Source: Anaerolineae bacterium (GTDB taxonomy: Bacteria; Chloroflexota; Anaerolineae; UBA3071). Taken from it: DNA of 64,000 bases. Shown here piece after piece: positions 24,124 through 53,909 of this stretch. Below the pieces are notes generated by a model that saw only the letters and a program-made list of their open reading frames with translations, made no database searches and was not told the DNA's origin. The position numbers and the translations under genes were made by a program. The stretch lies in assembly GCA_029907105.1 (NCBI GenBank), contig JARYMM010000002.1, forward strand, positions 18,992-82,991, given 5' to 3'. Each line of letters opens with the position of its first letter. Positions within the stretch are counted from its first letter, which is position 1.

Positions 24124-26769
24124 TCAGGGAGCAAGCTCGATGGCTTTCAAGATCACATATTCACCGCGCAGAAGCCCGAAGGGGCCGCGGCGGGCGGGGA
24201 TGCGCTGGCCGTCGCTGGCCCGTTCCAGGGCGACGACGAGCCGGTAGCGGCCAGGCGGCGCGTCAGCGGGGACAGTCAGCTCGTGGCGGTCGCCCACAGG
24301 GTAATCCGTCGCCCAGAGCGAGGTGGGATAACGGCCATCCACCGGCCGGCCCGCGGCGCGGGCCACGATGCGGTCGCCTGCGTCCAGCAGTTGCAGCACC
24401 ACCAGATAGTCGTCCACGTACGGCGAGGGACGGGGACGCCAACACAGCTTGACGGGGATGACATCGCCGGGCCGCAGCCGCGTGGCCGGGCTGTAAGCTT
24501 CGAGCAGTTCGATATAGTCGAAGCGGGCCAGCGGGCGCTCGCCAGGCCTCATGGACGGCTCCTCGGGCAGGGTGATCTCCACGCCGCCCAGTTGCAGGCG
24601 ATGGCCATCGGCCACGGAGAGGCCATCTTCGGAGACCGCAGGCAGCGGTTCAGCCATGGCCGGGTCATACAGCACCAGCTCGACGCTGTACCGGCCGGGA
24701 GGCGTATCCCCAGGCACAGGCAGGCGCACAGGCTGGCGTTCAACGCCCCCCGCTGGCCAGCGGGAGGTGGTATAGAGGCTGCCCAACGGGCGCTCGTCCG
24801 GCGGCTGGCTCCAGACGCGGCCCTGGGCATCCACCAGGCGCAGCGAGGTGGCGTAGTCGGCGGCCGGAGGCTGGCGTACCTGCCAAAAGAGGGCCGTGTA
24901 CAGCGTCTGCCCGGCGGCAAGGGTGCCGCAACAGGGCGGGACGTAGAGCGTGAACAGGTCGCCGAAGGCAGCGCGGCGGGCATCGGCCGGCGGCTCAACA
25001 GCACGCTGGCGGGGCAGCACCCCCTGCACCCGCATGTTGGCCTCGCCAGTGAAGACCCGATCCTCGAACAGCTCCCCATAGGCGTCCAACAGGCCCCGGA
25101 TCACCCCCTGCGGGTCGTTGACCGTGTCGTAGATGCGGTAGTGCCACAGGCGAGGATGGGTGGCCAGGAGCAGGGCGAGCTTCTCCTTCGCCAGGTCGCC
25201 GGGCAAGGCGTAAAAGTCGGACGCCGGATCGCCCCAGCCCAGGCGGGGGTCGCCGTCAATGTGCCCTGTCTGCACGATGACCGCGCCGTCGGCGGAAGCC
25301 GCTGCTGGGGTGTAGTCGCTCAGCCGCCCGCGCCAGGCGATGGGCAACTGCAAGTAGGTCAGCAGCGCCGTGTAGCTATAGCCGGCGTTGACCAGGATGA
25401 CGTCACCGGGCCGCCACTGTTCGCTCAGCAAGCGTGCGGCGGCGCGGTGGTCGTCGCTGGCGTAGCGCGGGTCGCCCCACAGGTTGTGCAGGGAGAAGCC
25501 GGAAGCGGCGAGGATGACGGCCAGCGCGCCGACGGCCAGCGGCCGCCTCCAGCGCCGCCAGCGGAGGAGAGCCACAATGCCTGCCGCCAGGACCAGGCTG
25601 AAGGGCGGTGCGTAGGCGAAGACGTAGCGGACGTGATATAGCGGCGTGAACAAAGAAGCCAGGAAGACAAGCAGCACCGGGACGAGAGTATGGATGGCCA
25701 GGGGAAAGGAAGGAAAGGAGGGAAAGGAAGGGACGATCTCTTGCATTCCCTCCATTTCCTTCTCTTCCTTCGTTTCCCTTCTTAGAAGCCCAAGTATGTA
25801 AAGGGCAGCCGTCATGACTAAGAGCGGCCACACGCGTTGCGGTTCCACGGATTGTCCGAAGCTGAGCGCACTCCAGGTTTCCGTCAGCATGTCCCACAGC
25901 CCGGTAAAGGTGCGCCAGGGCGGCACGGGCGGGTCGGTGGCCTGCCGCCAGGCGATGGGCAGCCAGGGTGCGTACAGGAGCAGAACGGCGGCCTGGGCGA
26001 GGAACCAGGCCCGAAGCCGGAACCTGGAACCTGAAACCTGGAACCCTCCGGGCCGAGCGCCTCGGCCGACGCCTCGGCGGAGGCCCTCAGGGCGAAGCCT
26101 GGAACACGCCACTACGATGACCCATAGATTAAGGGCGACGAGGAGGAAGGCGAAGTAGTAGAGAACGTAGAGGCCAGCGGCAGCAGCGAGGACGTAAAGG
26201 ATGAGTGCGCAGCGGTCAGGGGTCAAGGGATAGGGGTTAGGGGAGGTTCCCTTTGGCTCAGAACCTGAAACCATCTGGGGGCTCACGAAGTGGATGATGC
26301 ACCGAAGACAGATCAGCCCCAGCACCGCGCCGAGGGTGTACATGCGCACCTCTTGCGCGTACCAGACGTGGAAGGGGGAGATGGCCGTGAGCGCTGCCGC
26401 CAAAAGCGCCGTCGGCTCATCGTACAGGCGGCGGCCCAGGGTGTAGATGAGCGGGATCAGCATCATGCCGAAGACGAGGGAGAGGAGCGCAGCAGCGAAC
26501 TCCAGGCCGTGGCCGTCGGCGTCGGCATGGCCGGTGGGATAGCCGAAGAGAAGCAGCCAGCCGCGCAGCAGCAGATAGTAGCCGGGCGGATGGATGTCGC
26601 CGGCGGTGTGGGCGATGAGGGCGGGCACGGGCTTGCCCGCCAGGTGCACGCTGACCGTCTCGTCGTACCAGAGGCTCTGCGCGCCGAGCCGGTGCAGGCG
26701 CAGGCCAAAGGCGGCCAGCAGGATGAGCAGCAGGATCAGGCGAGAGCGAGCAGCGGCATGGCGAACCAT
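24124..26769 (-). CDS. GT39/GT83-family (ArnT/PMT-like) membrane glycosyltransferase with a large C-terminal extracytoplasmic domain
   Basis: N-terminus LILLLILLAAFGLRLHRLGAQSLWYDE...DIHPPGYYLLLRGW. Multiple transmembrane helices. 881 aa. Contains an in-frame F1 repeat insertion. Confidence 0.65.
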   Translation of the reverse strand: MVRHAAARSRLILLLILLAAFGLRLHRLGAQSLWYDETVSVHLAGKPVPALIAHTAGDIHPPGYYLLLRGWLLLFGYPTGHADADGHGLEFAAALLSLVFGMMLIPLIYTLGRRLYDEPTALLAAALTAISPFHVWYAQEVRMYTLGAVLGLICLRCIIHFVSPQMVSGSEPKGTSPNPYPLTPDRCALILYVLAAAAGLYVLYYFAFLLVALNLWVIVVACSRLRPEGLRRGVGRGARPGGFQVSGSRFRLRAWFLAQAAVLLLYAPWLPIAWRQATDPPVPPWRTFTGLWDMLTETWSALSFGQSVEPQRVWPLLVMTAALYILGLLRRETKEEKEMEGMQEIVPSFPSFPSFPLAIHTLVPVLLVFLASLFTPLYHVRYVFAYAPPFSLVLAAGIVALLRWRRWRRPLAVGALAVILAASGFSLHNLWGDPRYASDDHRAAARLLSEQWRPGDVILVNAGYSYTALLTYLQLPIAWRGRLSDYTPAAASADGAVIVQTGHIDGDPRLGWGDPASDFYALPGDLAKEKLALLLATHPRLWHYRIYDTVNDPQGVIRGLLDAYGELFEDRVFTGEANMRVQGVLPRQRAVEPPADARRAAFGDLFTLYVPPCCGTLAAGQTLYTALFWQVRQPPAADYATSLRLVDAQGRVWSQPPDERPLGSLYTTSRWPAGGVERQPVRLPVPGDTPPGRYSVELVLYDPAMAEPLPAVSEDGLSVADGHRLQLGGVEITLPEEPSMRPGERPLARFDYIELLEAYSPATRLRPGDVIPVKLCWRPRPSPYVDDYLVVLQLLDAGDRIVARAAGRPVDGRYPTSLWATDYPVGDRHELTVPADAPPGRYRLVVALERASDGQRIPARRGPFGLLRGEYVILKAIELAP
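26001..26107. repeat. family F1 element (half hairpin plus conserved 43-bp core) inserted in-frame in the GT39 gene
   Basis: Heptamers CGGAACC TGGAACC TGAAACC TGGAACC are followed by the core CGGGCCGAGCGCCTCGGCCGACGCCTCGGCGGAGGCCCTCAG. The core is identical at 42/43 positions to 53820..53862. It encodes ...LRPEGLRRGVGRGARPGGFQVSGSRFRLRAW... in the glycosyltransferase. Confidence 0.8.
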
Positions 26770-27089: not shown

Positions 27090-27713
27090 ATGAGAATACT
27101 ACGCCTCGCCGCTTTTCTGCTGCTGGCCACAGCAATGTTGGCCGGAGTCTCTCCCGCCTATGCCCATGTGCCCTACATCGAGCGGGAAGACTACACGGAG
27201 GAGGCTCCCGCCGTTGTGCGTAACGTCGAGCAGTCCAAGGCGTTCTATGCCTGGCTGCAATCGGCCGATGACGTGGACTATTATCGCCTGCAAGTACAGG
27301 GGCCGACCCGGATCTTCGCCCAGGTCATTGTCCCCGTCTGCCCCGGCTACGAGGAGTTCCGGCCCAGTTTCGCCGTGATCGGCCCGGGTCTGCCCGATCC
27401 CACCGAGGAGCTGCCGGTGCTGTTGCCCGAAGGCTATGGCGCTATCATCGTGCCCAACGGAACCCCCGGCCAGCCGCGGGAGAGCTTCTACGAGCCCTTT
27501 GGCGGCAAATCCTATTACGACGGCCCCCTGTTCGACCAGACGGTCGAGATGCCCGGCGATTGGCAACTGATCGCCTGGGACCCCTACGGCATGGGCGGTG
27601 ACTACGTCACTGTGGTGGGGGCCGGAGAGCAGTTCGCACCCGCTGACATCCTGCGCTCCATCCACAACACGCTGATCATCCGGCGGAACGGTGAATTACA
27701 CACCGACTGCTGA
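27090..27713 (+). CDS. secreted hypothetical protein (signal peptide)
   Basis: Starts MRILRLAAFLLLATAMLAGVSPAYA. GGAGGA ribosome-binding site. Confidence 0.55.
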   Translation: MRILRLAAFLLLATAMLAGVSPAYAHVPYIEREDYTEEAPAVVRNVEQSKAFYAWLQSADDVDYYRLQVQGPTRIFAQVIVPVCPGYEEFRPSFAVIGPGLPDPTEELPVLLPEGYGAIIVPNGTPGQPRESFYEPFGGKSYYDGPLFDQTVEMPGDWQLIAWDPYGMGGDYVTVVGAGEQFAPADILRSIHNTLIIRRNGELHTDC

Positions 27714-27786
27714 GATCCCGGACCGTGGACAAAGCAGGAACCGCATCTGTCCCGTTAGAGGTAGAAGACGGGTTTCTGGGGCTATC

Positions 27787-29109
27787 ATGACCTACACGAC
27801 GCCGATGTTCAATCTGAAAGCTGTCGTCGAAGAGACCGGCATCACCGCCCACACGCTGCGCGCCTGGGAACGGCGCTATGGCCTGCCGCGGCCGGCGCGC
27901 AGCGAAGCTGGACACCGCCTCTATTCGCAGCGGGACATTGATGTGCTCAAATGGCTGATAGCCCGCCAACAGGAAGGCCTGAGCATCGGGAGAGCAGCGG
28001 AATTGTGGCAGGCGCTGGAAGCCGAAGGCCGGGAACCTCTGCAGGCGATGCCATTGCTTCCTCCAGCCGCCATGCCGGCTGGAGGAAAGCTCGCCGAATT
28101 GCGCCAGGCTTGGGTCTCGGCCTGCCTGGCCTTCGACGAAGCCCGCGCCGAACAGGTGGTCACGGGGGCTTTCGCCCTCTACGGGCCGGAGATGGCCTGC
28201 CTGGAGGTGCTGCAGAGGGGGCTTGCGCAGATCGGCGAGGCCTGGTACGCTGGCCAGGCCAGCGTGCAGCAGGAACACTTCGCCACCGCGCTGGCCATGC
28301 GCCGCCTGGACGGATCGGTCCTGGCCACGCCGCCACCGACACGGGCTGGCCGCATCCTGGTTGCCTGCCCGCCGGAGGAGGAACACGCCTTCAGCCTGCT
28401 GCTGGCCGCCTTCCTGTTGCGGCGACGGGGTTGGGATGTGCTCTACCTGGGTGCCAATGTGCCCATCGCCCGCCTGGAGACGGCCATCGCTGCTCGCCGG
28501 CCGCAACTGGTGCTCTCAGCGGCCCAACAGTTGCCCACAGCGGCCACCCTGCTGGAGATGGCGCGCTTCCTGTACGGGGAGCAGATTCCGCTGGCCTTTG
28601 GCGGGTGGATCTTCAACCGCCTGCCGGCATTGCCTGCCCGCATCCCCGGTCACTTCCTGGGCCAGACTATCCCGCAGGGAGTGCAGGCAGCGGAGCAATT
28701 GATGCTGGCGCCCCGCCCGCTGCCTCAGGCCGGGGGTCAGGAGGTCGCCTTCGAACACGAGAGCAGCCAGGAGCGGCGTCGGGCGCTGGCCCACTACCGT
28801 GAGCGCCAACCGCGCATCGAGGCGGAGCTGTGGCAGAACCTGGCCACGATGGGCATGGCCGAAAAGGACCTGACCATGGCCAACGACGCGCTGGCGCGCC
28901 ATATCAGTGCTGCCCTGATCCTGTGCGAGATGAGTTTTCTCGACACCTGCCTGGATTGGGCGCAGGGTCTGTTGCACAACCATGGCCTGCCCTTGGACGT
29001 CCTGTCAAACTATCTGCGCGCTTACCATCGAGCCGCCCAGGCACATCTGGATGAACGCGCCACGCCTATCGTCAATTGGCTGGCCACACAATTATCACAG
29101 GAGAAATAG
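27787..29109 (+). CDS. carH: MerR-family regulator with a cobalamin (B12)-binding domain, CarH/LitR-type light sensor, with ~130 extra C-terminal residues
   Basis: N-terminal MerR helix-turn-helix (ITAHTLRAWERRYGLPRPARSEAGHRLYS). B12-binding Rossmann motif ILVACPPEEEHAFSLLLAAFLLRRRGWDVLYLGANVP. Confidence 0.75.
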   Translation: MTYTTPMFNLKAVVEETGITAHTLRAWERRYGLPRPARSEAGHRLYSQRDIDVLKWLIARQQEGLSIGRAAELWQALEAEGREPLQAMPLLPPAAMPAGGKLAELRQAWVSACLAFDEARAEQVVTGAFALYGPEMACLEVLQRGLAQIGEAWYAGQASVQQEHFATALAMRRLDGSVLATPPPTRAGRILVACPPEEEHAFSLLLAAFLLRRRGWDVLYLGANVPIARLETAIAARRPQLVLSAAQQLPTAATLLEMARFLYGEQIPLAFGGWIFNRLPALPARIPGHFLGQTIPQGVQAAEQLMLAPRPLPQAGGQEVAFEHESSQERRRALAHYRERQPRIEAELWQNLATMGMAEKDLTMANDALARHISAALILCEMSFLDTCLDWAQGLLHNHGLPLDVLSNYLRAYHRAAQAHLDERATPIVNWLATQLSQEK

Positions 29110-30035: not shown

Positions 30036-31457
30036 ATGAGCACGGCGATCTGGTGGGCGCGGCGCGATCTGCGTCTGGCCGACAACCAGGCCCTGCAAGC
30101 GGCGCTGGCCCACGCCGGGCAGGTGGTCCCCGTCTTCGTGCTTGACCCGGTGCTGCTGACGGCGCCCGAAGCCGGGGCGAAGCGCGCGGCCTTCCTCTTC
30201 GGCGGGCTGCGAGCGCTGGATGCGCAACTGCGCGCCCGCGGCAGCCGGCTGATCATCCGCCAGGGCGACCCGCGGGACGAGCTGGCCGCGCTGCTCGCCG
30301 AAAGCGGTGCCACGGCCATCTTCGCCGAGGAGGACCCCTGGCCCTACGGCCGGCAGCGGGACCTGCGCGTGGCGGCGACGTTGCCCCTGCACCTGGTCGG
30401 CGGCCTCACCGTACAGCCGCCGGGGGCTGTGCTGAAGGCCGACGGCAATCCCTACACCGTCTTCACCCCCTTCAGCCGGCAATGGCAGGCCCTGCTGTCG
30501 TCCCAAGAGCCCACACCCCTTCCGGCGCCCGAGCGGCTGGCCGCGCCGCCTGCTGTGGCCAGTCTGCCCATACCGGAGAAACCGGCCTTGCCTGCGGCAG
30601 TGCCCTTTCCGCCTGGCGAGGGTGAAGCCTGGAAGCGGCTGCGCGGTTTCGCCGTGGGCGAAAATGCACCCATCTATGACTATGCGACGCGGCGCGACCG
30701 GCTGGACCTGGAGGGCACGTCGCGCCTTTCGCCGTACCTGCGCTTCGGCATGCTCTCTGCCGGCCAGGCTGTGGCTGCGGCGCGCCAGGCGATGGACGCT
30801 GCCCCGAACGCGGCCGCCCGCCGGGGTGCGGAGACCTGGCTCAACGAGCTCATCTGGCGCGAGTTCTACATACATATCCTGCACCATTTCCCATACGTGC
30901 TGGAGCAAAGCTTCCGCGCCGACCTGCGGGCCATTCCCTGGGCCAACGACGAGGGGGACTTCGCCGCCTGGTGCGCCGGGCGCACCGGCATCCCCGTGGT
31001 GGATGCCGCGTTGCGCCAGTTGGCCGAGACCGGCTGGATGCATAACCGGGCGCGCATGATCGTGGCTTCGTTCCTGACCAGGGATTTGCTGATTGACTGG
31101 CGCTGGGGGGAACGCGTTTTCATGCAGCACCTGGTGGATGGCGACCCGGCGGCCAACAACGGCGGCTGGCAGTGGACGGCGGGCACCGGCAGCGACGCCG
31201 CGCCCTACTTCCGCCTCTTCAACCCCACCCTGCAGGGTCAAAGACACGACCCGCAGGGGGCCTACGTGCGGCACTGGCTGCCGGAACTGGCCCGCGTGCC
31301 CGAACGCTTTATCCACGAACCTTGGAAAATGCCGCTGGAGATGCAGCGCGCAGCCGGCTGCATCATCGGCGTGGACTACCCCGCCCCCATCGTGGATCAC
31401 CGCTGGGCCCGCGAGAGGGCACTGGACGCCTATGGTGCCGCTCGTCGCAGGATGTGA
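30036..31457 (+). CDS. phr: deoxyribodipyrimidine (CPD) photolyase, class I
   Basis: Starts [21 protein letters not shown]-terminal FAD-binding domain motifs WREFY and [13 protein letters not shown]. Confidence 0.9.
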
Positions 31458-44995: not shown

Positions 44996-47900
44996 TCAAG
45001 GCCTGGACGGGCGCTGACGCGCCGCCTTCAGCTCCCGCACGCGCCCACGGCGATCAATCTGGAAACGCCGCACGTAGCGGGGCGGCAACTCGAAAGCAAA
45101 ACGTGAAGGGCCGCGCAGGAAACCATCGCCCCGATCGCGGGTGGAACAGAGATAGAGCCGTTCCCTGGCCCGCGTCATGCCCACGTAAAACACCCGCCGT
45201 TCCTCGGCCAGCGCGGCTTCCTGCCCCTCCTGCAGCGTCGTCCACAGCGGCAGGTTCTCTTCCTCCACGCCGATGATGATGACCACCGGAAACTCGGTGC
45301 CCTTGGCGTTATGCAGGGTCATCAACGTCACCCGGTCTGGCCGGGTCTCGTGGGCGAAGGTGTCCACGTTGACCACCAGCGCCTGATAGTCAAGAAAGGC
45401 GGAAAGGGAACGGTCTGCGCTGAAACGCAGGAAGGCGGCCACCTGCTGCTGGAACGCCTCCCGCAGGCGATCCCAGGCTTCGTCCACCAGCGGTGGCGGT
45501 TCCTCCGCCTCCAGCCGTGCGGCAAGCAAGGTCAGCCTCTCCTCCGCCTGTGGCCGCAGCTCCCGCACCCGTGCCAGACCCACGATCTCCCCCGAACGCT
45601 GCACGACCCGTCGCGCCGCATTGAGCAGGGCCGCCATCGGGATCATTCCGCCATCCGCATTCCGCTTTTCGCAATGCAGCTCCAGCAGTCCCAGGACGGC
45701 CAACGGCAACAACTCGGGCAGAGCACGCAACGCCGTCTGCCAGCGGTTCTCGGCCAGCAAACGCTCGAAGAGCGCCGCTACCTGGCGCACATCCCCGGCC
45801 GCGCGGTGCTCCACCCGCTCTCCCAGGCCGAAATAGCGCAGCAGGCTCTCCAGACTGTAGCTCGCCGGCGCATCCGGCCCATCGCGCAGCAGGCGGCGGG
45901 CCAGCGTCAACGTGTCCAGGTACGGGTTGCGAAAGCCCCGTCCCAGCAACCGCCCGGCCTCGCGGTCGAGAAAGCGATTGTCGAAGCCTTCGACATTGTG
46001 CCCGACCACGGTGTCGGTGCCGACGTAGGCCAGGAAGCGGGGCAGCACCCTCTCGATGCCCTCGGCGTCCCTGACGTCTTCCCAGCGCAATCCGTGAACC
46101 TGGGTGGCCGCTTTGGGAATGAAACCCTGTTCCGGCCGCACCCTGGCGTAGAAGGGTTCCCCGGCCGGCCTGCCTCCCCGCATGGCCATCCCACCGATCT
46201 CGATGATCTCATCACGTCGGGCATTGGTGCCCGTGGTCTCCAGATCGTAGACGACGAAAGAACCTTCGCCCAGCCGCTCGTGGGCGGCCAGCAGGTCCTG
46301 GGCGAAACGGTAGGCAACCACGCTGCACGGAGTTTCGGGTTCCAGGTTCCGGGTTTCAGGCTCCAGGCTCCAGGCTTCGGGTTCTGAGGCCGGGCTTCTG
46401 GCCTCGAGTCTTAAACCCCCGGCTTCGGGGATGAGTTCAATGTCCAACGGGCGGCCCAGGTAGTGCTGCAGGGTGTGCTCCAGGATGGCCGCCGCGCAGG
46501 CGCCGTCGAGGGTAGCCGGCGCAGTCAGCCGGAGGCGGGCACCCGCCTGGAGTTGGTCGCGCAGCCGTCCAGCCTCCTCGGAAAACGCGCATCCGCTGGC
46601 CCAGGTGCGCCATTTCTGCCATTCTCCCCGCTCAAAGGGACTGCGCCGCTGCTCCAGCAGGGTGAACAGCTTTTCCATGATGACGTCTACGGCCTCCGCG
46701 CTGGCCGGTTTCAACTCCTCCTCGAACAGGCGCAGAAAGCCTTGCAGATTGGCGCGGGTGAGCGGGCTGAGCTCGGGGAAGGCCTGGGCACGGCGGGCCA
46801 GATCGGCCAACCCCACGGCGTGGAAGTCCGCCAGCCTTTGCAACTGCATCACCGTCAGCTCGTCGGCCAGCGTCTGCGGGAAGTTGAGCGCTTCGAGGAT
46901 GGCCTGGTCGTCGGCCAGCGAGCGAATGAGGTGCAGGTAGCGCACCACTTCCCGCGCCCCCGGTTGCTCGAAGAAGTTTTTCTTGCGCACCCGCTGCAGC
47001 GGGATCTGCTCTTGTCCCAGGTATCCCTCCAGGTCGTCGGCCAGTTGATGGGTGCGATAAAAGATGGCGATGTCCCCGCAGGCATAGCCATGCCCGTCGG
47101 CCAGGCGGCGGATGAGACGGGTGATCAGGCGATGCTCCTGTGCGACATCGGCCAGCAGATAGTGATGGATGGGAGCCCCGCGGCCCCGGCTGGTGTGCAG
47201 AAACCGCCGGCGCTGCGGCGACCGCTGGCGGGCGATCATGTTCTGGGCAGCATAGAGAATGGTCTCCGTGCTGCGATAACACTCGGTGAGTTCGATCACC
47301 CGCGGGTGATAGCGGGCGATGAACTCGTCCACCAACTGCGGCTGCGCCCCTCGCCATTCGTAGATGGACTGGTCGTCGTCGGCCACGGCCATGACGTCGG
47401 CCCCTGGCGGGCACAGCAGGGTGAGCAGTTCGTATTGGGCGCGGTTGATGTCCTGATACTCATCCACCAGCACGTGCGGCAGCAGGCGTTGCAACTCCTG
47501 GCGCACCTCCGCCCGCTCCCGCAGCAGGCGCACGGTTTCGCCGATGAGATCGTCGAAGTCGAGGGCCCGGCGGGCACGCAAACCTTCGGCATAATCGGCA
47601 GCCAATTCGGCCCACAGTGGATCCCCGACGCTTTCGCCCGAGGCAGCTCGCGCCAGATCGCGCAACGCCGCTTTCTCGTAGCTGACGAAATCCCGCAGGC
47701 GATAGACCGGGTACAGCTCCTGGCTCAGGTTGCGCCGCGTGATGACGCTCCGCCAGATGGCGTCCTGCAGTACTTCGTCGGCGACGATGAAATCGGGCAG
47801 CAGGCCGATGGCCGCGCCATGCCGGCGCAGGATGCGCAGGCAGGCGGCGTGAAAGGTGTGGATCCAGATGTCTGCTGCCGCCGGCCCCAGCAGGTGTTCC

Positions 47901-48130
47901 AGGCGCGAGCGCATCTCCTCAGCGGCTTTGTTGGTAAAGGTCACGCAGAGCAACCGCGTGGGGGGCACCTTTCGCTCGACGACGAGATAGGCCACACGGG
48001 AGGTCAGGGTACGGGTCTTGCCGCTCCCCGGGCCGGCCAGCACCAACACCGGACCGGGCTCGAGTGTCACTGCCTGCCGTTGGCTGTCGTTCAGGCTTGC
48101 CAGAATCTCTTCCGTCGTGTGCAGGGTCAT
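44996..48130 (-). CDS. UvrD/PcrA-family SF1 helicase with an inserted DnaQ-type (DEDDh) 3'-5' exonuclease domain
   Basis: N-terminal VLVLAGPGSGKTRTL (Walker A). Middle segment VVYDLETTG...HNVEGFD...HRAAGD has exonuclease motifs I-III. C-terminal MTLHNAKGTEFP...VGMTRAR (UvrD C-domain). Start at MTLHTTEE (ATG 48130). Contains an in-frame F1 heptamer insertion. Confidence 0.8.
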   Translation of the reverse strand: MTLHTTEEILASLNDSQRQAVTLEPGPVLVLAGPGSGKTRTLTSRVAYLVVERKVPPTRLLCVTFTNKAAEEMRSRLEHLLGPAAADIWIHTFHAACLRILRRHGAAIGLLPDFIVADEVLQDAIWRSVITRRNLSQELYPVYRLRDFVSYEKAALRDLARAASGESVGDPLWAELAADYAEGLRARRALDFDDLIGETVRLLRERAEVRQELQRLLPHVLVDEYQDINRAQYELLTLLCPPGADVMAVADDDQSIYEWRGAQPQLVDEFIARYHPRVIELTECYRSTETILYAAQNMIARQRSPQRRRFLHTSRGRGAPIHHYLLADVAQEHRLITRLIRRLADGHGYACGDIAIFYRTHQLADDLEGYLGQEQIPLQRVRKKNFFEQPGAREVVRYLHLIRSLADDQAILEALNFPQTLADELTVMQLQRLADFHAVGLADLARRAQAFPELSPLTRANLQGFLRLFEEELKPASAEAVDVIMEKLFTLLEQRRSPFERGEWQKWRTWASGCAFSEEAGRLRDQLQAGARLRLTAPATLDGACAAAILEHTLQHYLGRPLDIELIPEAGGLRLEARSPASEPEAWSLEPETRNLEPETPCSVVAYRFAQDLLAAHERLGEGSFVVYDLETTGTNARRDEIIEIGGMAMRGGRPAGEPFYARVRPEQGFIPKAATQVHGLRWEDVRDAEGIERVLPRFLAYVGTDTVVGHNVEGFDNRFLDREAGRLLGRGFRNPYLDTLTLARRLLRDGPDAPASYSLESLLRYFGLGERVEHRAAGDVRQVAALFERLLAENRWQTALRALPELLPLAVLGLLELHCEKRNADGGMIPMAALLNAARRVVQRSGEIVGLARVRELRPQAEERLTLLAARLEAEEPPPLVDEAWDRLREAFQQQVAAFLRFSADRSLSAFLDYQALVVNVDTFAHETRPDRVTLMTLHNAKGTEFPVVIIIGVEEENLPLWTTLQEGQEAALAEERRVFYVGMTRARERLYLCSTRDRGDGFLRGPSRFAFELPPRYVRRFQIDRRGRVRELKAARQRPSRP
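46331..46432. repeat. family F1 heptamer array (about 14 consecutive 7-nt units: GGTTCCA GGTTCCG GGTTTCA GGCTCCA GGCTCCA GGCTTCG ...) in-frame inside the helicase gene
   Basis: Encodes ...ARSPASEPEAWSLEPETRNLEPETP... between the helicase and exonuclease domains. Confidence 0.8.
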
Positions 48131-48276: not shown

Positions 48277-48305
48277 TTGACAAATATCAAGGGACATGCT
48301 ACAAT
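48277..48305 (+). promoter_or_regulatory. consensus sigma70 promoter TTGACA-17-TACAAT for the perR-led oxidative-stress operon
   Basis: The -35 is at 48277..48282 and the -10 at 48300..48305. The imperfect dyad TTAGAATGGTTATCGTTTAA (48314..48333) over the transcript start is a possible autoregulatory box. Confidence 0.6.
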
Positions 48306-48357
48306 CTCCTCAGTTTAGAATGGTTATCGTTTAATGAGGCTTGTCGTGAGGCAGACG

Positions 48358-48828
48358 ATGCTGACAACTGAGGAGATGTGTCGGAAGTTTCGGGCCCTGG
48401 GGCTGAAGGTGACGCCCCAGAGGCGCTTCATCTTCCAGGTGCTGGAGGGAAACCCCCATCACCCCTCGGCCGAGGCGGTTTACGCAGAAGTGCGTGCTTT
48501 TATCCCTGAGATCTCTCTGGCTACCGTGTACAACACGCTGCGCGAGCTGGTGGACCTGGGTGAACTGCGCGAGTTGAACCTGGGGGATGGCAAGAGCCAT
48601 TACGATCCCGACCTGAGCAACCACCAACATCTGGTGTGCGTGCGCTGCCACGCCGTCGCAGACGTGACCTGTGATATCGGTGGCCTTACCCTGACTCCGG
48701 AGCAAAGCCGGGGCTACCGACTTCTGGGCACTGATGTGACGTTCTACGGCCTGTGCCCCGCCTGCCAGCAGCAGGCGGATTGGCCGGGGCAGGCTTTGCA
48801 CCTGTGGGGGGTATCACCCGCAGCCTGA
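48358..48828 (+). CDS. perR: Fur-family metalloregulator, PerR-like
   Basis: Has a KVTPQRRFIFQVL DNA-binding helix and the HHxHxxCxxC metal site (NHQHLVCVRCH). Position heads a peroxide-stress operon. Confidence 0.7.
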   Translation: MLTTEEMCRKFRALGLKVTPQRRFIFQVLEGNPHHPSAEAVYAEVRAFIPEISLATVYNTLRELVDLGELRELNLGDGKSHYDPDLSNHQHLVCVRCHAVADVTCDIGGLTLTPEQSRGYRLLGTDVTFYGLCPACQQQADWPGQALHLWGVSPAA

Positions 48829-48861
48829 ATGCACATTACGATCGAAAGAAAGGATGACCCA

Positions 48862-49356
48862 ATGGCAAGAACAGATTTCGATTACATGAGCGGGGAGCAA
48901 TACCTGGAGGAGATCCTTCGCCAGGCGATCCGCTTCGAAGAGGAATCGTACGCCCTTTACACCAACGCCATCCGGATCAGCACGATGGCCGATGCCCGGG
49001 CCATGCTGGAGGACCTGGCTGCGCAGGAGTTGGGGCACAAACAGAAATTGCAGCGCCTTCAGGCACAGGGAGTCGCCAACCTTGTCCCTGTGGTGAGGAC
49101 GGCGGAGGCTCGGGACCTCAAACTGGCCGAGGTCTTGCAGGCGCCCTCGGAACTGGATGAAGAAGCCGACCTGCAGGACGTATTACTGGTGGCCATGCAG
49201 CGAGAGAAATCCACTCGCGAGTTCTATCTGAAGCTGGGACAGGTCACCGAAGAAGGGCCGGTCAGGAGCCTGTTCGATTTTCTGGCCGAAGAGGAGTTGA
49301 AGCATAAGCAGCGGGTCGAGTCGCTCTACGAGCAACTGGTCTACCGGGAGTTCTGA
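48862..49356 (+). CDS. rubrerythrin-like ferritin-fold diiron protein (no rubredoxin domain)
   Basis: Has two E...ExxH pairs ([30 protein letters not shown]). Confidence 0.6.
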
Positions 49357-49411
49357 TCGGAAAACGGCCAATGCGATTGGCCTTCTACCCTTTACACGAG
49401 GAGAACATAGC

Positions 49412-49573
49412 ATGAAGAAGTACGAATGTCTCGCTTGCGGCTACATTTACGATCCTGAGCTGGGCGATCCCGATGGGGGCATCGCTCCCGGCACCGCTTT
49501 CGAGGACTTGCCCGACGATTGGGTCTGCCCTCAGTGCGGTGTGGGCAAGGACATGTTCGAGCCCCTGGATTGA
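49412..49573 (+). CDS. rub: rubredoxin (53 aa); not present in the supplied ORF track
   Basis: Sequence [53 protein letters not shown] has two CxxCG knuckles. GAGGAG ribosome-binding site. Confidence 0.85.
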
Positions 49574-49590
49574 GTGAGGCCGGCGAAAGC

Positions 49591-50793
49591 ATGTCAGCCA
49601 TTGCCATCAAACCCGACGTCTATTGGATCGGTGTCAACGATCGGACGACCGACCTTTTTGAGGGCTTGTGGCCGATCTCGCAAGAGGGCGTTTCCTACAA
49701 CGCCTACCTCATCAACGACGAGAAGAAAGCGCTCATAGACCTGGCCAAAGCCTTCAAGGCGGACGAATTCTTCGACCACATCGGCGAAGTGGTGGATCCC
49801 TCGCGGCTTGACTACGTCATCATCAACCACATGGAGCCCGACCACACCGGCGTCTTGAACACGCTGCGCCGCATTGCCCCGCAGGTGACCCTTCTGGGTT
49901 CGGCCAAGACGAAGGAGATGCTGGCCTCTTTCTACGGTGTCACGGAAAACGTCGAGGTGGTCGGCGATGGCGATACCCTCTCTCTGGGCCACAGCACATT
50001 GCAGTTTTTCTCCACGCCCTTTGTGCACTGGCCGGAGACGATGATGACCTACGAGACCGGGCGGCGCATCCTTTTCTCCTGCGACGCTTTCGGTGGCTAC
50101 GGCGCGCTGCGCGGGGCCATCTTCGACGACGAGTACCCCGACCTGGGCTTCTATCAGCGGGAGGCCCTTCGCTACTATGCGAACATCATCGCCGGTTTCA
50201 GCAAACGGGTGCTGATGGCCATCGAGAAGCTGGCCGATGTGCCCGTGGAGATCATCGCCCCTTCGCACGGGCTGATCTGGCGGCAGCATCCCCAGCTCAT
50301 CGTCAACCTTTACCGCCAATGGGCCGAGTATGCCGAGAGCGGTGGCGAGGTCGGCGTGACCCTCGTCTACGGGTCCATGTACGGCTACACGGAGAAGATG
50401 ATGAATGCGGTGGCGCAAGGCATCTCCCGCGCTGGCGTGCCGGTGGAGATTTTCGACGCCGCCAGGACGCACGTCAGCTACATCCTGCCCTCCCTGTGGG
50501 CCCGGATCGGCGTGATGGTCGGCGCTCCGACCTACGAGGTCTCCCTGTTTCCTCCCGTGGCCCAGGTGCTGGACATGGCCGTGCACAAGCGCGTACGGCA
50601 TAAGAAGGCAGCCCGGTTCGGCAGCTACGGCTGGAGCGGCGGCGCGCAGAAACACTTCGAGCGCCTCGTTGAATCGGCAGGCTGGGAATTGCTGGACGTT
50701 TTCGAGTTCGTGGGCAGCCCTTCGCCGGAGGAGCTGGAGCAGGGCGAGGAATTCGGTGCCCGCTTCGCTGCACGGATCAGGGAGGGGCGATGA
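49591..50793 (+). CDS. fprA: flavodiiron protein (FprA; rubredoxin:oxygen/NO oxidoreductase)
   Basis: N-terminal metallo-beta-lactamase fold with HxExDH (HMEPDH) and a C-terminal flavodoxin domain. 400 aa. Confidence 0.85.
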   Translation: MSAIAIKPDVYWIGVNDRTTDLFEGLWPISQEGVSYNAYLINDEKKALIDLAKAFKADEFFDHIGEVVDPSRLDYVIINHMEPDHTGVLNTLRRIAPQVTLLGSAKTKEMLASFYGVTENVEVVGDGDTLSLGHSTLQFFSTPFVHWPETMMTYETGRRILFSCDAFGGYGALRGAIFDDEYPDLGFYQREALRYYANIIAGFSKRVLMAIEKLADVPVEIIAPSHGLIWRQHPQLIVNLYRQWAEYAESGGEVGVTLVYGSMYGYTEKMMNAVAQGISRAGVPVEIFDAARTHVSYILPSLWARIGVMVGAPTYEVSLFPPVAQVLDMAVHKRVRHKKAARFGSYGWSGGAQKHFERLVESAGWELLDVFEFVGSPSPEELEQGEEFGARFAARIREGR

Positions 50794-50811
50794 CGGTTGT
50801 CACATAATGTC

Positions 50812-52029
50812 ATGAATTTCACGATTATCGGCAACGGTGTGGCCGGCAACACCGCCGCCCTGGCCCTGAGCAGGCTCGTCCCAGGGGCGCGGGTTGACGT
50901 CTATGCTGCCGAAGCGCATCCCTACTACCCCCGCCCGCTGCTGCCCGAATTCCTGGCCGGCGAGCTGGACCTGGAACACCTGTACTTCAAGCCCCTGTCC
51001 TGGTATGCCGGGCGGAGCATCGCCCTGCACCTGGGCGTGCCGGTGGTCGCCATCATCCTGCAGGAACATCGCATCACGCTGGCGGATGGCACGAAGGCTG
51101 GCTACGATCGTTTGCTCCTGGCCGCCGGTGGCCAGGCCTGGGTTCCCCCCATTCGGGGCGCAGACAAGCCGGGGGTGTTTACCCTGCGCACGGTGGACGA
51201 TGCCCTGGCCATCCAGTCCTATGCCCGCCGGGCGCGCCGGGCCATCGTCATCGGCGGTGGCCTGCTGGGCCTGGAGGCGGCGCGGGCGCTGCGTGTCCTG
51301 GGTCTCCAGGTGAAAGTGGTCGAGTTTCTGCCCCGCCTGTTGCCCCGCCAGCTCGATGCCGAAGGCGCTGCCGTGCTGCAGGGGCTGATCGAGGGCCGGG
51401 GCATCGAGGTCATGGTGGATGCGGCTGCGGAGGAAATCCTGGGAGCAGATGGCGTGACGGGGCTGCGGCTCAAAGACGGTCGGGAGATCGAAGGGGAGCT
51501 TGTGCTGGTCTCCACGGGCATCCGCAGCAACGTCGCCCTGGCCCGAGAGGCGGGCCTGGAGGTGAACCATGGCGTGGTCGTAGACGAACATCTGCGCACC
51601 AGCGCCGCCGACGTCTACGCCGCGGGGGACGTGGCGGAGTTCGATGCTCGGGTCTATGGCATTGTGCCCGCGGCCATCGAGCAGGCGCGGGTTGCCGCTG
51701 CCCACATGGCCGGCGACGAGAGCGCCACTTATCAGGGCACCGTGCCCTTTACCACGCTGAAGGTCACCGGCATTGATCTGACCAGCGTGGGCGTGATCAT
51801 GCCGGAGGAGGGCCGGGAAGCGGAATATCAGGAGCTGCGGCGCACGGATGGCGCCCAGGGGCTGTACCGCAAGCTGGTGTTGAAGGACGGCTGCATTGTG
51901 GGGGCCATCCTGCTGGGCGACAAGGCCCGTGTGGGCCCCGTCACGCAGTTGATCAACCGGTCAGTGGATGTCTCGGCTCACGTCGAGCGGCTCCTGGATG
52001 ACGATTTCGACCTTAAATCCCTGCTGTGA
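50812..52029 (+). CDS. NAD(P)H:rubredoxin oxidoreductase (FAD-dependent pyridine nucleotide-disulfide oxidoreductase family)
   Basis: Has FTIIGNGVAGNTAA and IVIGGGLLGLEAA dinucleotide-binding motifs. Confidence 0.75.
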   Translation: MNFTIIGNGVAGNTAALALSRLVPGARVDVYAAEAHPYYPRPLLPEFLAGELDLEHLYFKPLSWYAGRSIALHLGVPVVAIILQEHRITLADGTKAGYDRLLLAAGGQAWVPPIRGADKPGVFTLRTVDDALAIQSYARRARRAIVIGGGLLGLEAARALRVLGLQVKVVEFLPRLLPRQLDAEGAAVLQGLIEGRGIEVMVDAAAEEILGADGVTGLRLKDGREIEGELVLVSTGIRSNVALAREAGLEVNHGVVVDEHLRTSAADVYAAGDVAEFDARVYGIVPAAIEQARVAAAHMAGDESATYQGTVPFTTLKVTGIDLTSVGVIMPEEGREAEYQELRRTDGAQGLYRKLVLKDGCIVGAILLGDKARVGPVTQLINRSVDVSAHVERLLDDDFDLKSLL

Positions 52030-52077
52030 AGCGATGGTTTCCCTCTGGAAGCACTGTTTCCACCTGTGTGGTTGGTA

Positions 52078-52105
52078 GTAGGACAACTGCGAGCAGTTGT
52101 CCTAC
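52078..52105. promoter_or_regulatory. perfect 28-bp palindrome GTAGGACAACTGC-GAG-GCAGTTGTCCTAC between nror and rbr, flanked by direct repeats AGCACTGTTTC (52050 and 52143)
   Basis: Read directly. No U-tract follows, so this is not a classical terminator. Confidence 0.5.
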
Positions 52106-52205
52106 GCTGGTAGCCAGCAGCGCCCATCGCAACCGCACAGGTAGCACTGTTTCAGGATGTGTTGGCATCCTGACCACGACTCTTCACATTCAAGGAGAAG
52201 CAACG

Positions 52206-52709
52206 ATGAAACTGATGACCAAAGACAATCTGCAAGCTGCCTTTGCCGGCGAGAGCCAGGCGCACATGAAGTATCTGATCTTCGCCGATCAGGCGGAGAA
52301 GGAAGGCTTTCCCGATGTCGCCCGTCTCTTCCGCGCCATTGCCTTCGCCGAGCAGGTCCATGCCACCAACCACTTCCGCACCCTGGGCAAAATCGGCCAG
52401 ACGGCGGAGAACCTGCAGGCGGGGATTGATGGGGAGACCTATGAGGTGAACGAGATGTACCCCGCCTTCCGCGCCGTGGCTGAGCTGCAGGAGGAAAAAG
52501 GGGCGAACCGCTCGATGAGCTGGGCCCTGGAGGCGGAGAAGGTGCATGCCGGGATGTACGAACAGGCCCGCCAGGCCGTCCTCTCCGGCAAGGATGCCGA
52601 GGTGGGTGAGGTGTACATCTGCGAAGTCTGCGGCTGGACCGTCGAAGGCGAGCTGCCTGAGCGTTGCCCCATCTGCGGGGCCAGGAAGGAGAAGTTCCGC
52701 CGCTTCTGA
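52206..52709 (+). CDS. rbr: rubrerythrin (ferritin-like diiron domain plus C-terminal rubredoxin-like CxxC...CxxC)
   Basis: Has AFAGESQAHMKY and the C-terminal CEVCGW...CPICGA. AAGGAGA ribosome-binding site. Confidence 0.85.
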   Translation: MKLMTKDNLQAAFAGESQAHMKYLIFADQAEKEGFPDVARLFRAIAFAEQVHATNHFRTLGKIGQTAENLQAGIDGETYEVNEMYPAFRAVAELQEEKGANRSMSWALEAEKVHAGMYEQARQAVLSGKDAEVGEVYICEVCGWTVEGELPERCPICGARKEKFRRF

Positions 52710-52907
52710 GATGGGCGGACAGGAAAGACACGGTGTTGCCACGTTGATCGTCGCAGGTTGCCTGTGGGGTGCTGAACAGGAGGTTTGCTCATGGCAGAGA
52801 AGGAAAAGATCCCCTCTTGCGTGCAACCAGCAGCCGGCCCGTTAGTGCCGGCACCGAAGCTCGCCTCCGCCAAAGGCGAGCCGGCAACCGAGAAGGAGGT
52901 ACCTGAG

Positions 52908-53498
52908 ATGATCGCACGTGTGGGCAAGGAAGCGCCGGATTTTGAGACCAATGCCTTTGTGGACGGAGGCTTTAAGAACATCAAGCTGTCGGACTATCGC
53001 GGCCAGTGGGTGGTGCTCTGCTTCTACCCCGGCGACTTCACCTTCGTTTGACCGACGGAACTGACGGCAGTTGCCGCCAGGTATCCGGAGCTGAAGGCGT
53101 TGGGCGTCGAGGTGCTGGCCATGAGCGTGGACAGCGTCTTCGTTCACAAGGTCTGGCAGGAAGAAGAGCTGTCCAGGATGATCGAGGGGGGAGTTCCCTA
53201 TCCCATGCTCTCCGACCGGGGCGGGCGCATCGGCACCGTCTACGGAGTCTACGACGAGGCCGCTGGTGTGGACATTCGGGGCCGTTTCCTGATTGACCCC
53301 GATGGCGTGATCCAGGCCATGGAGGTCCTGACACCGTCTGTGGGCCGCAACCCGGACGAGCTGGTCCGCCAGGTCAAGGCGTATCAGCATGTGCGGGAAA
53401 CGGGCGAAGTCACCCCCTCCGGCTGGACACCAGGCCAACCCACCCTCAAACCAGGTCCTGGTCTGGTGGGCAAGGTCTGGAAGGTGTGGAAGCCCTGA
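52908..53498 (+). CDS. AhpC/Prx1-type peroxiredoxin with in-frame TGA at the peroxidatic cysteine ([14 protein letters not shown]); candidate selenoperoxiredoxin with no resolving Cys
   Basis: ATG 52908 is preceded by AAGGAGGT. ORFs 52785..53051 and 53100..53498 share a frame across TGA 53049..53051. A hairpin lies 13 nt downstream. Confidence 0.65.
53049..53051 (+). other. in-frame UGA, putative selenocysteine codon
   Basis: Replaces the Cys codon of the universal peroxiredoxin motif DFTFVCPTE. Confidence 0.6.
53065..53076 (+). promoter_or_regulatory. hairpin CGGC-AGTT-GCCG, putative bacterial SECIS apical stem-loop
   Basis: Lies 13 nt 3' of the UGA. Loop context GCAGTTGC is shared with 39395..39408. 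Confidence 0.4.
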
Positions 53499-53559
53499 GC
53501 ATCCTGGAGGCAACCGTCCGACGATCAGCGTGGCTATTCTTCGAGAGGAGGGAGGGGCG

Positions 53560-53736
53560 ATGACAGAGTTGAAATGCGATTTCTGCGGCGATCCTATCGA
53601 GGGGGAAGCGATCAGGCGCGGCGATCGCGTCTACTGCTGCGAGGCCTGTGCCTTTGAGGCCACCCGCAGCAAGGATTGCGGCGGCCGCGGCGATTCCCAT
53701 CTGCCTCACCAGGTCGCGGAACCCGTCGAGCGGTGA
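53560..53736 (+). CDS. small Cys-rich metal-binding protein (TRASH/zinc-ribbon-like), 58 aa
   Basis: Sequence MTELKCDFCGDPIEGEAIRRGDRVYCCEACAF... has C-x2-C...CC-x2-C. GGAGGGG ribosome-binding site. It is the last gene of the operon. Confidence 0.4.
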   Translation: MTELKCDFCGDPIEGEAIRRGDRVYCCEACAFEATRSKDCGGRGDSHLPHQVAEPVER

Positions 53737-53756
53737 GACCTGATCAGTGCATGGAA

Positions 53757-53909
53757 GGGTTTCAGGTTTCAGGTTCCAGGTTCCCGGTTTCCGGACCGAA
53801 CCTGAAACCTGAAACCCTTCGGGCTGAGCGCCTCGGCCGACGCCTCGGCGGAGGCCCTCAGAGCTTGCCCTGAGTGAAGCGAAGGGGCGAAGCCTTTGAA
53901 TCTGGAACC
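53757..53909. repeat. family F1 element, most complete copy: 38-nt heptamer arm (GGGTTTC AGGTTTC AGGTTCC AGGTTCC CGGTTTC CGG), 4-nt loop, inverted arm, then the conserved 43-bp core and tail; it acts as an intergenic hairpin/terminator between convergent operons
   Basis: Arms at 53757..53794 and 53799..53817. The core at 53820..53862 is 42/43 identical to 26050..26092. The tail GAAGCCT..GGAAC is shared with 26096..26105. The metalloprotease stop and last ~15 codons lie inside the element. Confidence 0.85.

Follow-up and report, generated by a model that had tools for sequence, protein, structure and literature searches.

Do the eight plus-strand genes at 48358-53736 of a 64,000-nucleotide stretch of Anaerolineae DNA (contig JARYMM010000002.1; the whole stretch is called the window below) make up one oxygen-defense unit governed by its own first gene, and is the in-frame UGA in the seventh of them read as selenocysteine (Sec)? 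Open reading frame (ORF) listing, reading of the sequence, and profile searches place these genes downstream of a TTGACA-17-TACAAT promoter and suggest that they probably constitute an autoregulated oxidative-stress operon of an uncultured member of the Chloroflexota (Anaerolineae/Thermoflexia-like); we infer from the DNA both the cotranscription of the eight genes and their control by a PerR-like protein. In order, the genes encode a PerR-like Fur-family regulator (156 aa, 48358-48828; Pfam FUR, 90 bits), a rubrerythrin-family ferritin-like diiron protein without a rubredoxin domain (164 aa, 48862-49356; Pfam Rubrerythrin, 51 bits), a rubredoxin (53 aa, 49412-49573; Pfam Rubredoxin, 89.5 bits; NCBIfam equivalog, 109.7 bits against a cut-off of 90), a class-A flavodiiron protein (FDP; 400 aa, 49591-50793; ODP and flavodoxin domains, HxExDH motif), an NAD(P)H:rubredoxin oxidoreductase (NROR)-like flavoprotein (405 aa, 50812-52029; Pyr_redox_2 and Rubredoxin_C), a rubrerythrin (167 aa, 52206-52709; Pfam Rubrerythrin and RUBY_RBDX), the predicted selenocysteine peroxiredoxin PrxU (235 aa, 52791-53498; in-frame TGA at 53049-53051, NCBIfam PrxU model NF040737), and a Cys protein of 58 residues (53560-53736; five invariant Cys). 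All eight identities had been proposed in a sequence-only reading of this DNA and were recovered by the profile searches, including the 53-residue rubredoxin, which is not in the ORF track and was confirmed by its above-cut-off match to the NCBIfam rubredoxin equivalog; the gene order is kept in relatives. The successive gaps are 33, 55, 17, 18, 176, 81, and 61 nt, so that the short gaps described in that reading hold at six junctions but not between nror and rbr (176 nt).

In the mechanism that we propose, a housekeeping-sigma promoter would drive perR and the seven genes 3' of it, and a PerR-like repressor loaded with Fe or Mn would occupy a Fur-type box immediately 3' of the -10 hexamer; H2O2 would oxidize the metal-binding histidines of the repressor and so release it from the DNA. 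Judging from characterized homologs, electrons would pass from NAD(P)H through the NROR-like flavoprotein to rubredoxin, which would supply two enzymes that form water, the FDP by reducing O2 and rubrerythrin by reducing H2O2. PrxU would act in parallel to this chain as a thiol/selenol-type peroxidase, and the rubredoxin-domain-less diiron protein encoded by gene 2 and the small, putatively metal-Cys4 protein encoded by the last gene may form a further ferritin-like/redox-partner pair.

The UGA in prxU is very likely a selenocysteine codon, decoded with the help of an adjacent selenocysteine insertion sequence (SECIS) hairpin. Translated from ATG 52791, which is preceded by an AGGAGG ribosome-binding site, PrxU scored 381.2 bits against NF040737 (cut-off, 270) over profile positions 3-230 of 233, and the TGA falls at the peroxidatic Cys position, within P80-G-D-F-T84-F-V-U87 (PxxxTxxU). 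In a scan of prxU loci limited to one genome per species, the 80 closest loci (66-78% identity) spanned Chloroflexota, Zixibacteria, Ignavibacteria, Desulfobacterota, Acidobacteriota, Actinomycetota, and other phyla; TGA occupies the Sec codon in 79 of them and TGC in one. A SECIS-like hairpin with an 8-pair helix, CUGaCGGC-AGUU-GCCGcCAG (53061-53080, plus strand), begins its helix 10 nt after the UGA. Its apical GU is invariant among 78 distinct sequences, in which 91% of cells are paired and 65 cells show two-sided changes, against 22 +/- 5.6 in shuffled alignments (0 of 500 shuffles reached the observed value). The closing pair, 21-24, is AU in 43 sequences and GC in 32; the exchange lies at synonymous third codon positions and is therefore not explained by protein coding. 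Support for the hairpin comes from this covariation, since the 62 nt after the UGA, folded alone, gave no significant result (z = -0.68); with gathering thresholds applied to the whole window, Rfam returned no match and hence no curated family for the PrxU hairpin. PMC13188914, which cites Sohling 2001, treats selenocysteine-containing peroxiredoxins as an experimentally established family. The assignment of the UGA to selenocysteine in the sequence-only reading is thus upheld by the TGA in 79 of 80 loci together with the covarying hairpin.

PrxU carries Thr in place of the usual C-terminal resolving Cys. Nearly all members of its clade have an N-terminal extension with an invariant Cys in the motif CVxPAxGP, and Cys77 is also invariant; we conjecture that Cys10, in this extension, could be the resolving residue for Sec87. 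An AlphaFold2 monomer of a Cys-type homolog (P0010) was uninformative about docking of the N-terminal Cys motif, its first 30 residues having predicted local distance difference test (pLDDT) values of 40-52, and because the extension was left disordered the role of Cys10 stays at the level of conjecture. By its sequence, PrxU belongs to a thioredoxin-dependent, thiol-type family. No thioredoxin genes were found among about 30 flanking ORFs scanned with Pfam. The PrxU reductant is not encoded in the operon, and we therefore read PrxU as a parallel peroxidase, not as the end of the rubredoxin chain; of its earlier description as a selenium-dependent terminal peroxidase, the selenium stands but the placement at the terminus of that chain does not. 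Databases systematically misannotate the PrxU clade: Trp stands at the Sec position in 65 of the top 120 database homologs (P0001-P0120), the UGA having been translated under an alternative genetic code, and elsewhere gene callers have divided prxU into two ORFs.

The proposed regulation begins at the sigma-70-type promoter, TTGACA (48277-48282) and TACAAT (48300-48305) separated by a 17-nt spacer, with a TG-extended -10 element (48277-48305, plus strand). A promoter scan matched 11 of its 12 consensus positions, and only six sites with at least 11 of 12 matches occur in the 64-kb window on both strands, where first-order Markov simulations lead one to expect 0.02. Three related loci, L161, L081, and L082, keep both hexamers and the TG. 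Given the rarity of such sites and a full-length primary sigma factor (RpoD) encoded 3.5 kb away, TTGACA-17-TACAAT is very likely a real promoter, and the consensus promoter that had been claimed here is borne out. The start of perR is ATG 48358, with a conserved GAGG ribosome-binding site; the program-made ORF begins at 48334.

A candidate PerR/Fur-type 7-1-7 operator, TTAGAATgGTTATCG, lies at 48315-48329 on the plus strand, about +4 to +18 from the predicted start site. Aligned with L161, L081, and L082, the divergent intergenic region contains four conserved blocks: the -35 hexamer, the TG with the -10 hexamer, TTTAGAAT..TTAT..TTT directly downstream, and the GAGG-ATG start. At the operator position, relatives have TTAGAATAATTATTG or a variant ending in ...TCA, the right half-site being ATTATCA in L081, and L088, a 54%-identical homolog, has the perfect palindrome TTAGAATAATTCTAA. 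With a position weight matrix made from the boxes of six relatives, TTAGAATgGTTATCG scored 22.2 bits and the next-best site in the window, outside the operon, scored 15.4. Some 70 regions upstream of perR homologs mostly show TTGACA-17-TATAAT with an overlapping box of the TTATAATnATTAyAA type. Phylogenetic footprinting thus supports an operator at the transcription start, with this site as the candidate; the dyad earlier proposed there as the PerR box is weak in its exact form, but the interval named does contain the conserved Fur/PerR-like box at 48315-48329.

The regulator itself covers positions 3-119 of the 121 in the Pfam FUR profile (90 bits; cut-off, 23.1). In an alignment with Bacillus subtilis PerR (2fe3), whose metal site is numbered His37/Asp85/His91/His93/Asp104, residues H35, D83, H89, H91, and D102 are conserved, and C94, C97, C133, and C136 correspond to the structural Zn(Cys)4 site. 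The position equivalent to B. subtilis D104 is Asp, where the Fur structure 9ire has Glu, and the highest-scoring NCBIfam models for the protein are PerR models.

The iron enzymes that this regulator would control fall into the expected families. The diiron protein of gene 2 matches Pfam Rubrerythrin over two stretches, with two readable E...ExxH motifs, and its sole PDB relative is 2fzf. The FDP has an ODP domain (85.5 bits) and a Flavodoxin_1 domain (37.4 bits) and no extra domains; its motif H80-M-E-P-D-H85 aligns with HAEEDH of NorV, and it is similar both to the Escherichia coli NorV core (248 bits) and to Moorella FprA (241 bits). Its Lys53 and Tyr264 stand at positions equivalent to residues of the O2-selective Entamoeba FDP, where E. 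coli NorV has Asp and Ser. These positions distinguish the Entamoeba enzyme from NorV, and the Lys/Tyr residues do not switch selectivity in the E. coli enzyme (PMC13133992); the signature is only a hint in favor of an O2 substrate. Exact-sequence look-ups for the FDP and the rubrerythrin gave no record.

For the NROR-like protein, Pyr_redox_2 (196 bits) and Rubredoxin_C (64.7 bits) were found, and the scores lay below the cut-offs of all NCBIfam equivalogs, including those for the NirB N-terminal domain and NorW. Its best match among solved structures is 8c0z_E, a ferredoxin:NADH-oxidoreductase-like subunit, followed by 1xhc and 3klj, and 3fg2 and 2v3a are also among the matches. Neither 1xhc nor 3klj is labeled as NROR in its PDB molecule name, but we take them to be the entries for this enzyme from Pyrococcus furiosus and Clostridium acetobutylicum. 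The rubredoxin gene lies two genes upstream of nror, and in many related loci rd directly neighbors nror; by analogy, the NROR-like protein presumably reduces rubredoxin. The rubrerythrin matches Pfam Rubrerythrin (94.8 bits) and RUBY_RBDX (41.2 bits), and its translation shows the diiron motifs (E, ExxH, E..E, ExxH) and a C-terminal CxxC...CxxC domain; because it scored 95 bits against the NCBIfam Rbr cut-off of 200, we assign it at the level of the family and not of the equivalog. No superoxide reductase (SOR) is present in the cluster, and for superoxide the enzyme set is therefore incomplete. The rubredoxin-dependent O2/peroxide chain, which had been called complete, is confirmed for the rubredoxin, NROR, FDP, and rubrerythrin families but lacks the superoxide step.

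The arrangement is conserved in relatives. In L082, L161, and L162 the order is helicase (minus strand), perR, rubrerythrin-like gene, rd, fdp, nror, rbr, prxU, small Cys gene, and InhA-like peptidase (minus strand), with amino acid identities to the window of 65-92% for L082, a contig of a Chloroflexi metagenome-assembled genome, and 92-100% for L161 and L162; the order is only partial in L081. The best named matches to EF-G assign the window to the Thermoflexia/Anaerolineae group of Chloroflexota. Looser perR-rd-nror-rbr-prxU clusters, with the small Cys gene, SOR, ferritins, and an FDP nearby, occur in L160, L158, L132, L130, L164, and L168. In L161 (9550-9880) and L162, prxU has lost about 374 nt internally and is frameshifted; the missing segment corresponds to window positions 52963-53336 and contains the Sec codon, and the operon is otherwise intact there. 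The rubrerythrin is 65% identical to that of L082 (12107-12607), where the flanking genes reach 79-92%, and 86% identical to a rubrerythrin of the more distant L004, which suggests that the gene was replaced by a different paralog or xenolog.

The one wide gap in the cluster coincides with an insertion. Between nror and rbr lies a hairpin-forming segment of 92 nt (52051-52142), absent from L161 and L082, that resembles a miniature inverted-repeat transposable element: an 11-bp direct repeat, AGCACTGTTTC, flanks it, inverted repeats of 13 bp (ACCTGTGTGGTTG and CAACCGCACAGGT) form its termini, and at its center is a perfect 13-bp palindrome of which the window holds no second copy. It looks like a miniature mobile element or one of the repetitive extragenic palindromic type. 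The insertion accounts for the 176-nt gap, which as a whole folds at -75.2 kcal/mol (z, -5.0); the corresponding gaps of L161 and L082 measure 85 and 37 nt. Within the cluster, neither a further consensus promoter nor a terminator turned up.

Several points weigh against reading the cluster as one PerR-controlled operon with a functional selenoprotein. Because of the widened gap with its strong inserted hairpin, coupling of the distal genes to the promoter could be incomplete. The regulator scored 117.2 bits against NF052545, the best PerR model (cut-off, 180), and 91 against NF047406 (cut-off, 200); although the NCBIfam PerR equivalog models were built for specific lineages, these scores are why we call the protein PerR-like. 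The B. subtilis PerR box has the consensus TTATAATNATTATAA, of which TTAGAATgGTTATCG matches 10 of 14 positions and the boxes of relatives match 12 of 14; the element in the window is a poor palindrome, and because a palindrome search of the window with TTAGAATNATTCTAA at up to 3 mismatches returned nothing, we regard the window's own box as degenerate. Deletion of the core of prxU indicates that PrxU is dispensable in the L161/L162 lineage. ARAGORN found no tRNA in the window, hence no tRNA-Sec, and selA, selB, and selD were not among some 30 non-operon ORFs scanned with Pfam, both results being uninformative for a sample of 64 kb. Finally, two residues give no reliable substrate preference for an FDP (PMC13133992).

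How far these points favor other explanations can be judged from the same evidence. That the cluster is two units, perR to nror and a separately transcribed rbr-prxU-small Cys set split at the 92-nt hairpin, is possible, and of the alternatives considered here it is the one we hold least unlikely: the gap is wider than in L161 and L082 and folds strongly, and the lower identity of rbr to its L082 counterpart, compared with its neighbors, suggests local rearrangement. The promoter scan, however, found no promoter-like site in the gap or before prxU, no second operator-like box occurs anywhere in the operon, the inserted hairpin lacks a T-run, and the gene order is kept in relatives without the insertion. 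It is distinctly less probable that the regulator senses iron (as Fur) or another metal and that the cluster, with its ferritin-like proteins, is an iron-homeostasis or iron-sparing regulon. The best PDB match of the regulator, 9ire, is annotated as Fur, every NCBIfam PerR model scores below its cut-off, the box resembles a Fur box equally well (with ATTATCA as the right half-site in L081), and ferritin and encapsulin genes occur in related clusters; yet the D104-equivalent residue is the Asp of PerR and not the Glu of the aligned Fur, the top NCBIfam models are PerR models all the same, the regulated genes are all O2 or peroxide reductases or their electron donors, and where a Fur-family regulator is known from inside such an operon, it is PerR (PMC11980386).

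A nitrosative-stress unit, in which the FDP and the rubredoxin/NROR chain would detoxify nitric oxide (NO) like NorV/NorW of E. coli, seems to us similarly improbable. The top profile and structure matches of the FDP are indeed the anaerobic NO reductase flavorubredoxin and Moorella FprA, deposited as "nitric oxide reductase," but Lys53 and Tyr264 agree with the O2-selective Entamoeba enzyme and not with the Asp/Ser of NorV, and the neighboring genes encode peroxidases under a PerR-like regulator instead of a NorR- or NsrR-type NO sensor; nor are O2 and NO activities mutually exclusive. Least credible of all, to the point of being nearly negligible, is that the TGA in prxU is a genuine stop, a sequencing error, or a pseudogene lesion. 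Such a view could appeal to the splitting of prxU by gene callers in related contigs and to the deleted prxU of the closest relative, but it would have to account for a TGA exactly at the peroxidatic position in 79 of 80 loci from many phyla, for clear purifying selection on both halves of the gene (66-82% identity), for a covarying GU-apex hairpin at the spacing expected for SelB, and for a full-length protein that exceeds the PrxU equivalog cut-off. A single PerR-regulated oxidative-stress operon with a selenoprotein peroxidase therefore remains the reading that we prefer.

The least familiar member of the cluster is its last gene. The family alignment of the 58-residue protein gives invariant cysteines at C6, C9, C26, C30, and C40, that is, a C-x2-C-x16-C-x3-C spacing plus a fifth invariant Cys; this comes close to the spacing that defines TRASH, C-x2-C-x19-22-C-x3-C. 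Pfam scores were below threshold (Metallothio_Pro, 24.7 against 33 bits; Arc_trans_TRASH, 20.9 against 27 bits), and no NCBIfam model matched. An AlphaFold2 model (pLDDT, 77.5), confident for residues 1-35, consists of a beta-hairpin and a helix, and Foldseek matched it to L24e, the MYM TRASH structure 2das, and metallothionein 6gv6, all weakly (E > 0.1). The earlier label of a TRASH-like Cys protein is therefore right about a Cys-rich protein of 58 residues and receives a weak fold match, but the Pfam scores fall short of it. A profile search of 1.84 billion cluster representatives found 70 relatives, 23 of them at E <= 1e-10, and the named members come from Chloroflexota. Of the 12 contexts examined, 10 place the gene in or beside a cluster with Rbr, PrxU, SOR, or Fur genes. 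In two members, P0302 and P0303, the Cys domain is fused N-terminally to ferritin-like diiron domains, and the fused ferritin-like domain is homologous to a ferritin-like gene that directly follows the small gene in other loci. The fused domains of P0303 showed no significant similarity to the diiron protein of gene 2 (E = 0.13), so that this Rosetta-stone link is to ferritin-like proteins generally and not to gene 2 specifically. We suggest, tentatively, that the protein is a redox or metal partner of ferritin-like proteins, and that with its relatives it may make up a small and so far undescribed family whose metal-Cys4 members serve ferritin-like diiron proteins in redox reactions; that it is a stand-alone functional analog of the rubredoxin domain of rubrerythrin, or of bacterioferritin-associated ferredoxin, is an idea that we hold with equal reserve. 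In that case, its electrons in this operon would go either to the rubredoxin-domain-less diiron protein or to PrxU.

Chains that link NROR, rubredoxin, and FDP or rubrerythrin operate in Desulfovibrio gigas (Rd-ROO), Moorella thermoacetica (the fprA cluster), and P. furiosus (NROR-Rd-SOR/Rbr). The same families are found here, with the same predicted route from NAD(P)H through a flavoprotein and rubredoxin to a diiron enzyme; this cluster differs in its extra rubredoxin-domain-less diiron protein and in that the activity of its chain is predicted from the genes. PerR-controlled rbr/sor operons are known in clostridia: PerR of C. acetobutylicum controls rd, nror, fprA, dfx, and rbr, and Clostridioides difficile has the operon rbr-perR-sor-CD0828 (PMC11980386). 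The cluster would share with these regulons a Fur-family peroxide repressor that is encoded within, and presumed to repress, its own operon, as well as rubrerythrin-type and O2-reducing enzymes, rubredoxin-type donors, and a housekeeping-sigma promoter. Unlike them, it places the regulator first, unites FDP, NROR, and free rubredoxin in one unit without SOR, includes the PrxU selenoprotein and the small Cys protein, and comes from Chloroflexota and not Bacillota. The PrxU of Eubacterium (Peptoclostridium) acidaminophilum, as described (Sohling et al. 2001, cited in PMC13188914; NF040737), resembles ours in a Prx1/AhpC-type fold, PxxxTxxU with UGA-encoded Sec, the lack of a C-terminal resolving Cys, and a SECIS hairpin directly after the UGA; the PrxU of the window differs in its PerR-type operon context and its lineage. 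Rubrerythrin and reverse rubrerythrin, with rubredoxin-domain-less relatives such as ferriperoxin and "aerobic-type" rubrerythrins (PMC3317640, PMC5114695), offer a parallel to the proposed pair in the teaming of a ferritin-like diiron four-helix bundle with a small metal-Cys4 module, whereas the small protein here is not a rubredoxin by sequence and has a predicted TRASH/L24e-like fold that may be a zinc ribbon. Every main component is thus a member of a known family, and the overall logic is known from clostridia, sulfate reducers, and Pyrococcus; the only leads beyond annotation are the small Cys family and the N-terminal Cys of PrxU.

Several observations concern the surroundings of the cluster. 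On the minus strand, a UvrD-RNase T fusion helicase gene (44996-48130) is served by a divergent near-consensus promoter, TTGACT-16-TATAAT (48207-48180), and the helicase and perR promoters share one intergenic region of 226 bp. This region also contains one arm of a 12-nt perfect inverted repeat (ATCTCCTCAGTT at 48304-48315 and AACTGAGGAGAT at 48366-48377) that links the -10/+1 region to the start of perR. As a stem masking the ribosome-binding site it was rejected: it is not conserved in L161, L081, or L082, its 5' arm lies mostly upstream of the predicted start site, and it is probably fortuitous. At the other end of the cluster, a long hairpin of GGTTTCA/GGTTCCA heptads with 23-nt perfect arms (53754-53820) lies between convergent genes; the 121-nt spacer that holds it folds at -75.7 kcal/mol (z, -7.35), no T-run follows it, and in L161 it is absent from a spacer of 25 nt. 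It probably marks the 3' end of the transcript. The window contains 12 matches to the heptads, against 0.02 expected; similar runs lie at 26021-26045 (minus strand) and 46331-46369 (plus strand), one of them inside the helicase ORF. Farther afield, a large "ROS island" (ROS, reactive oxygen species) occupies positions 350-9750 of L164, another Chloroflexota contig. It encodes ferritin, cytochrome b5, Fur, rubredoxin, NROR, rubrerythrin, a split (Sec) PrxU, DJ-1, and SOR. Also present are the small Cys gene, a gene for a double ferritin-like protein that adjoins one for an encapsulin shell, a further ferritin-like gene, and one for an FDP.

The window also encodes a UV-damage endonuclease (UvdE), a light-responsive regulator of the MerR-B12-binding (CarH-like) kind, and a DNA photolyase (898-2709, 27691-29109, and 30036-31457), and the organism appears to be light exposed. 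Given these genes, strict anaerobiosis is not implied by the chain, which the sequence-only reading had assigned to strict anaerobes or microaerophiles.

Our findings overturn nothing in the current understanding of oxygen defense. They indicate that uncultured Anaerolineae-type Chloroflexota carry a "clostridial" oxygen-defense set of PerR, rubredoxin, NROR, flavodiiron protein, and rubrerythrin, which here appears to be combined in a single unit with a selenoprotein peroxidase. Within the PrxU clade, Sec and not Cys is the rule, with the practical result that many database entries split the gene or read its UGA as Trp. The locus thereby provides a compact and testable system for a Chloroflexota Fur-family operator, for the reductant of PrxU, and for a tiny Cys protein that tracks oxidative-stress genes.

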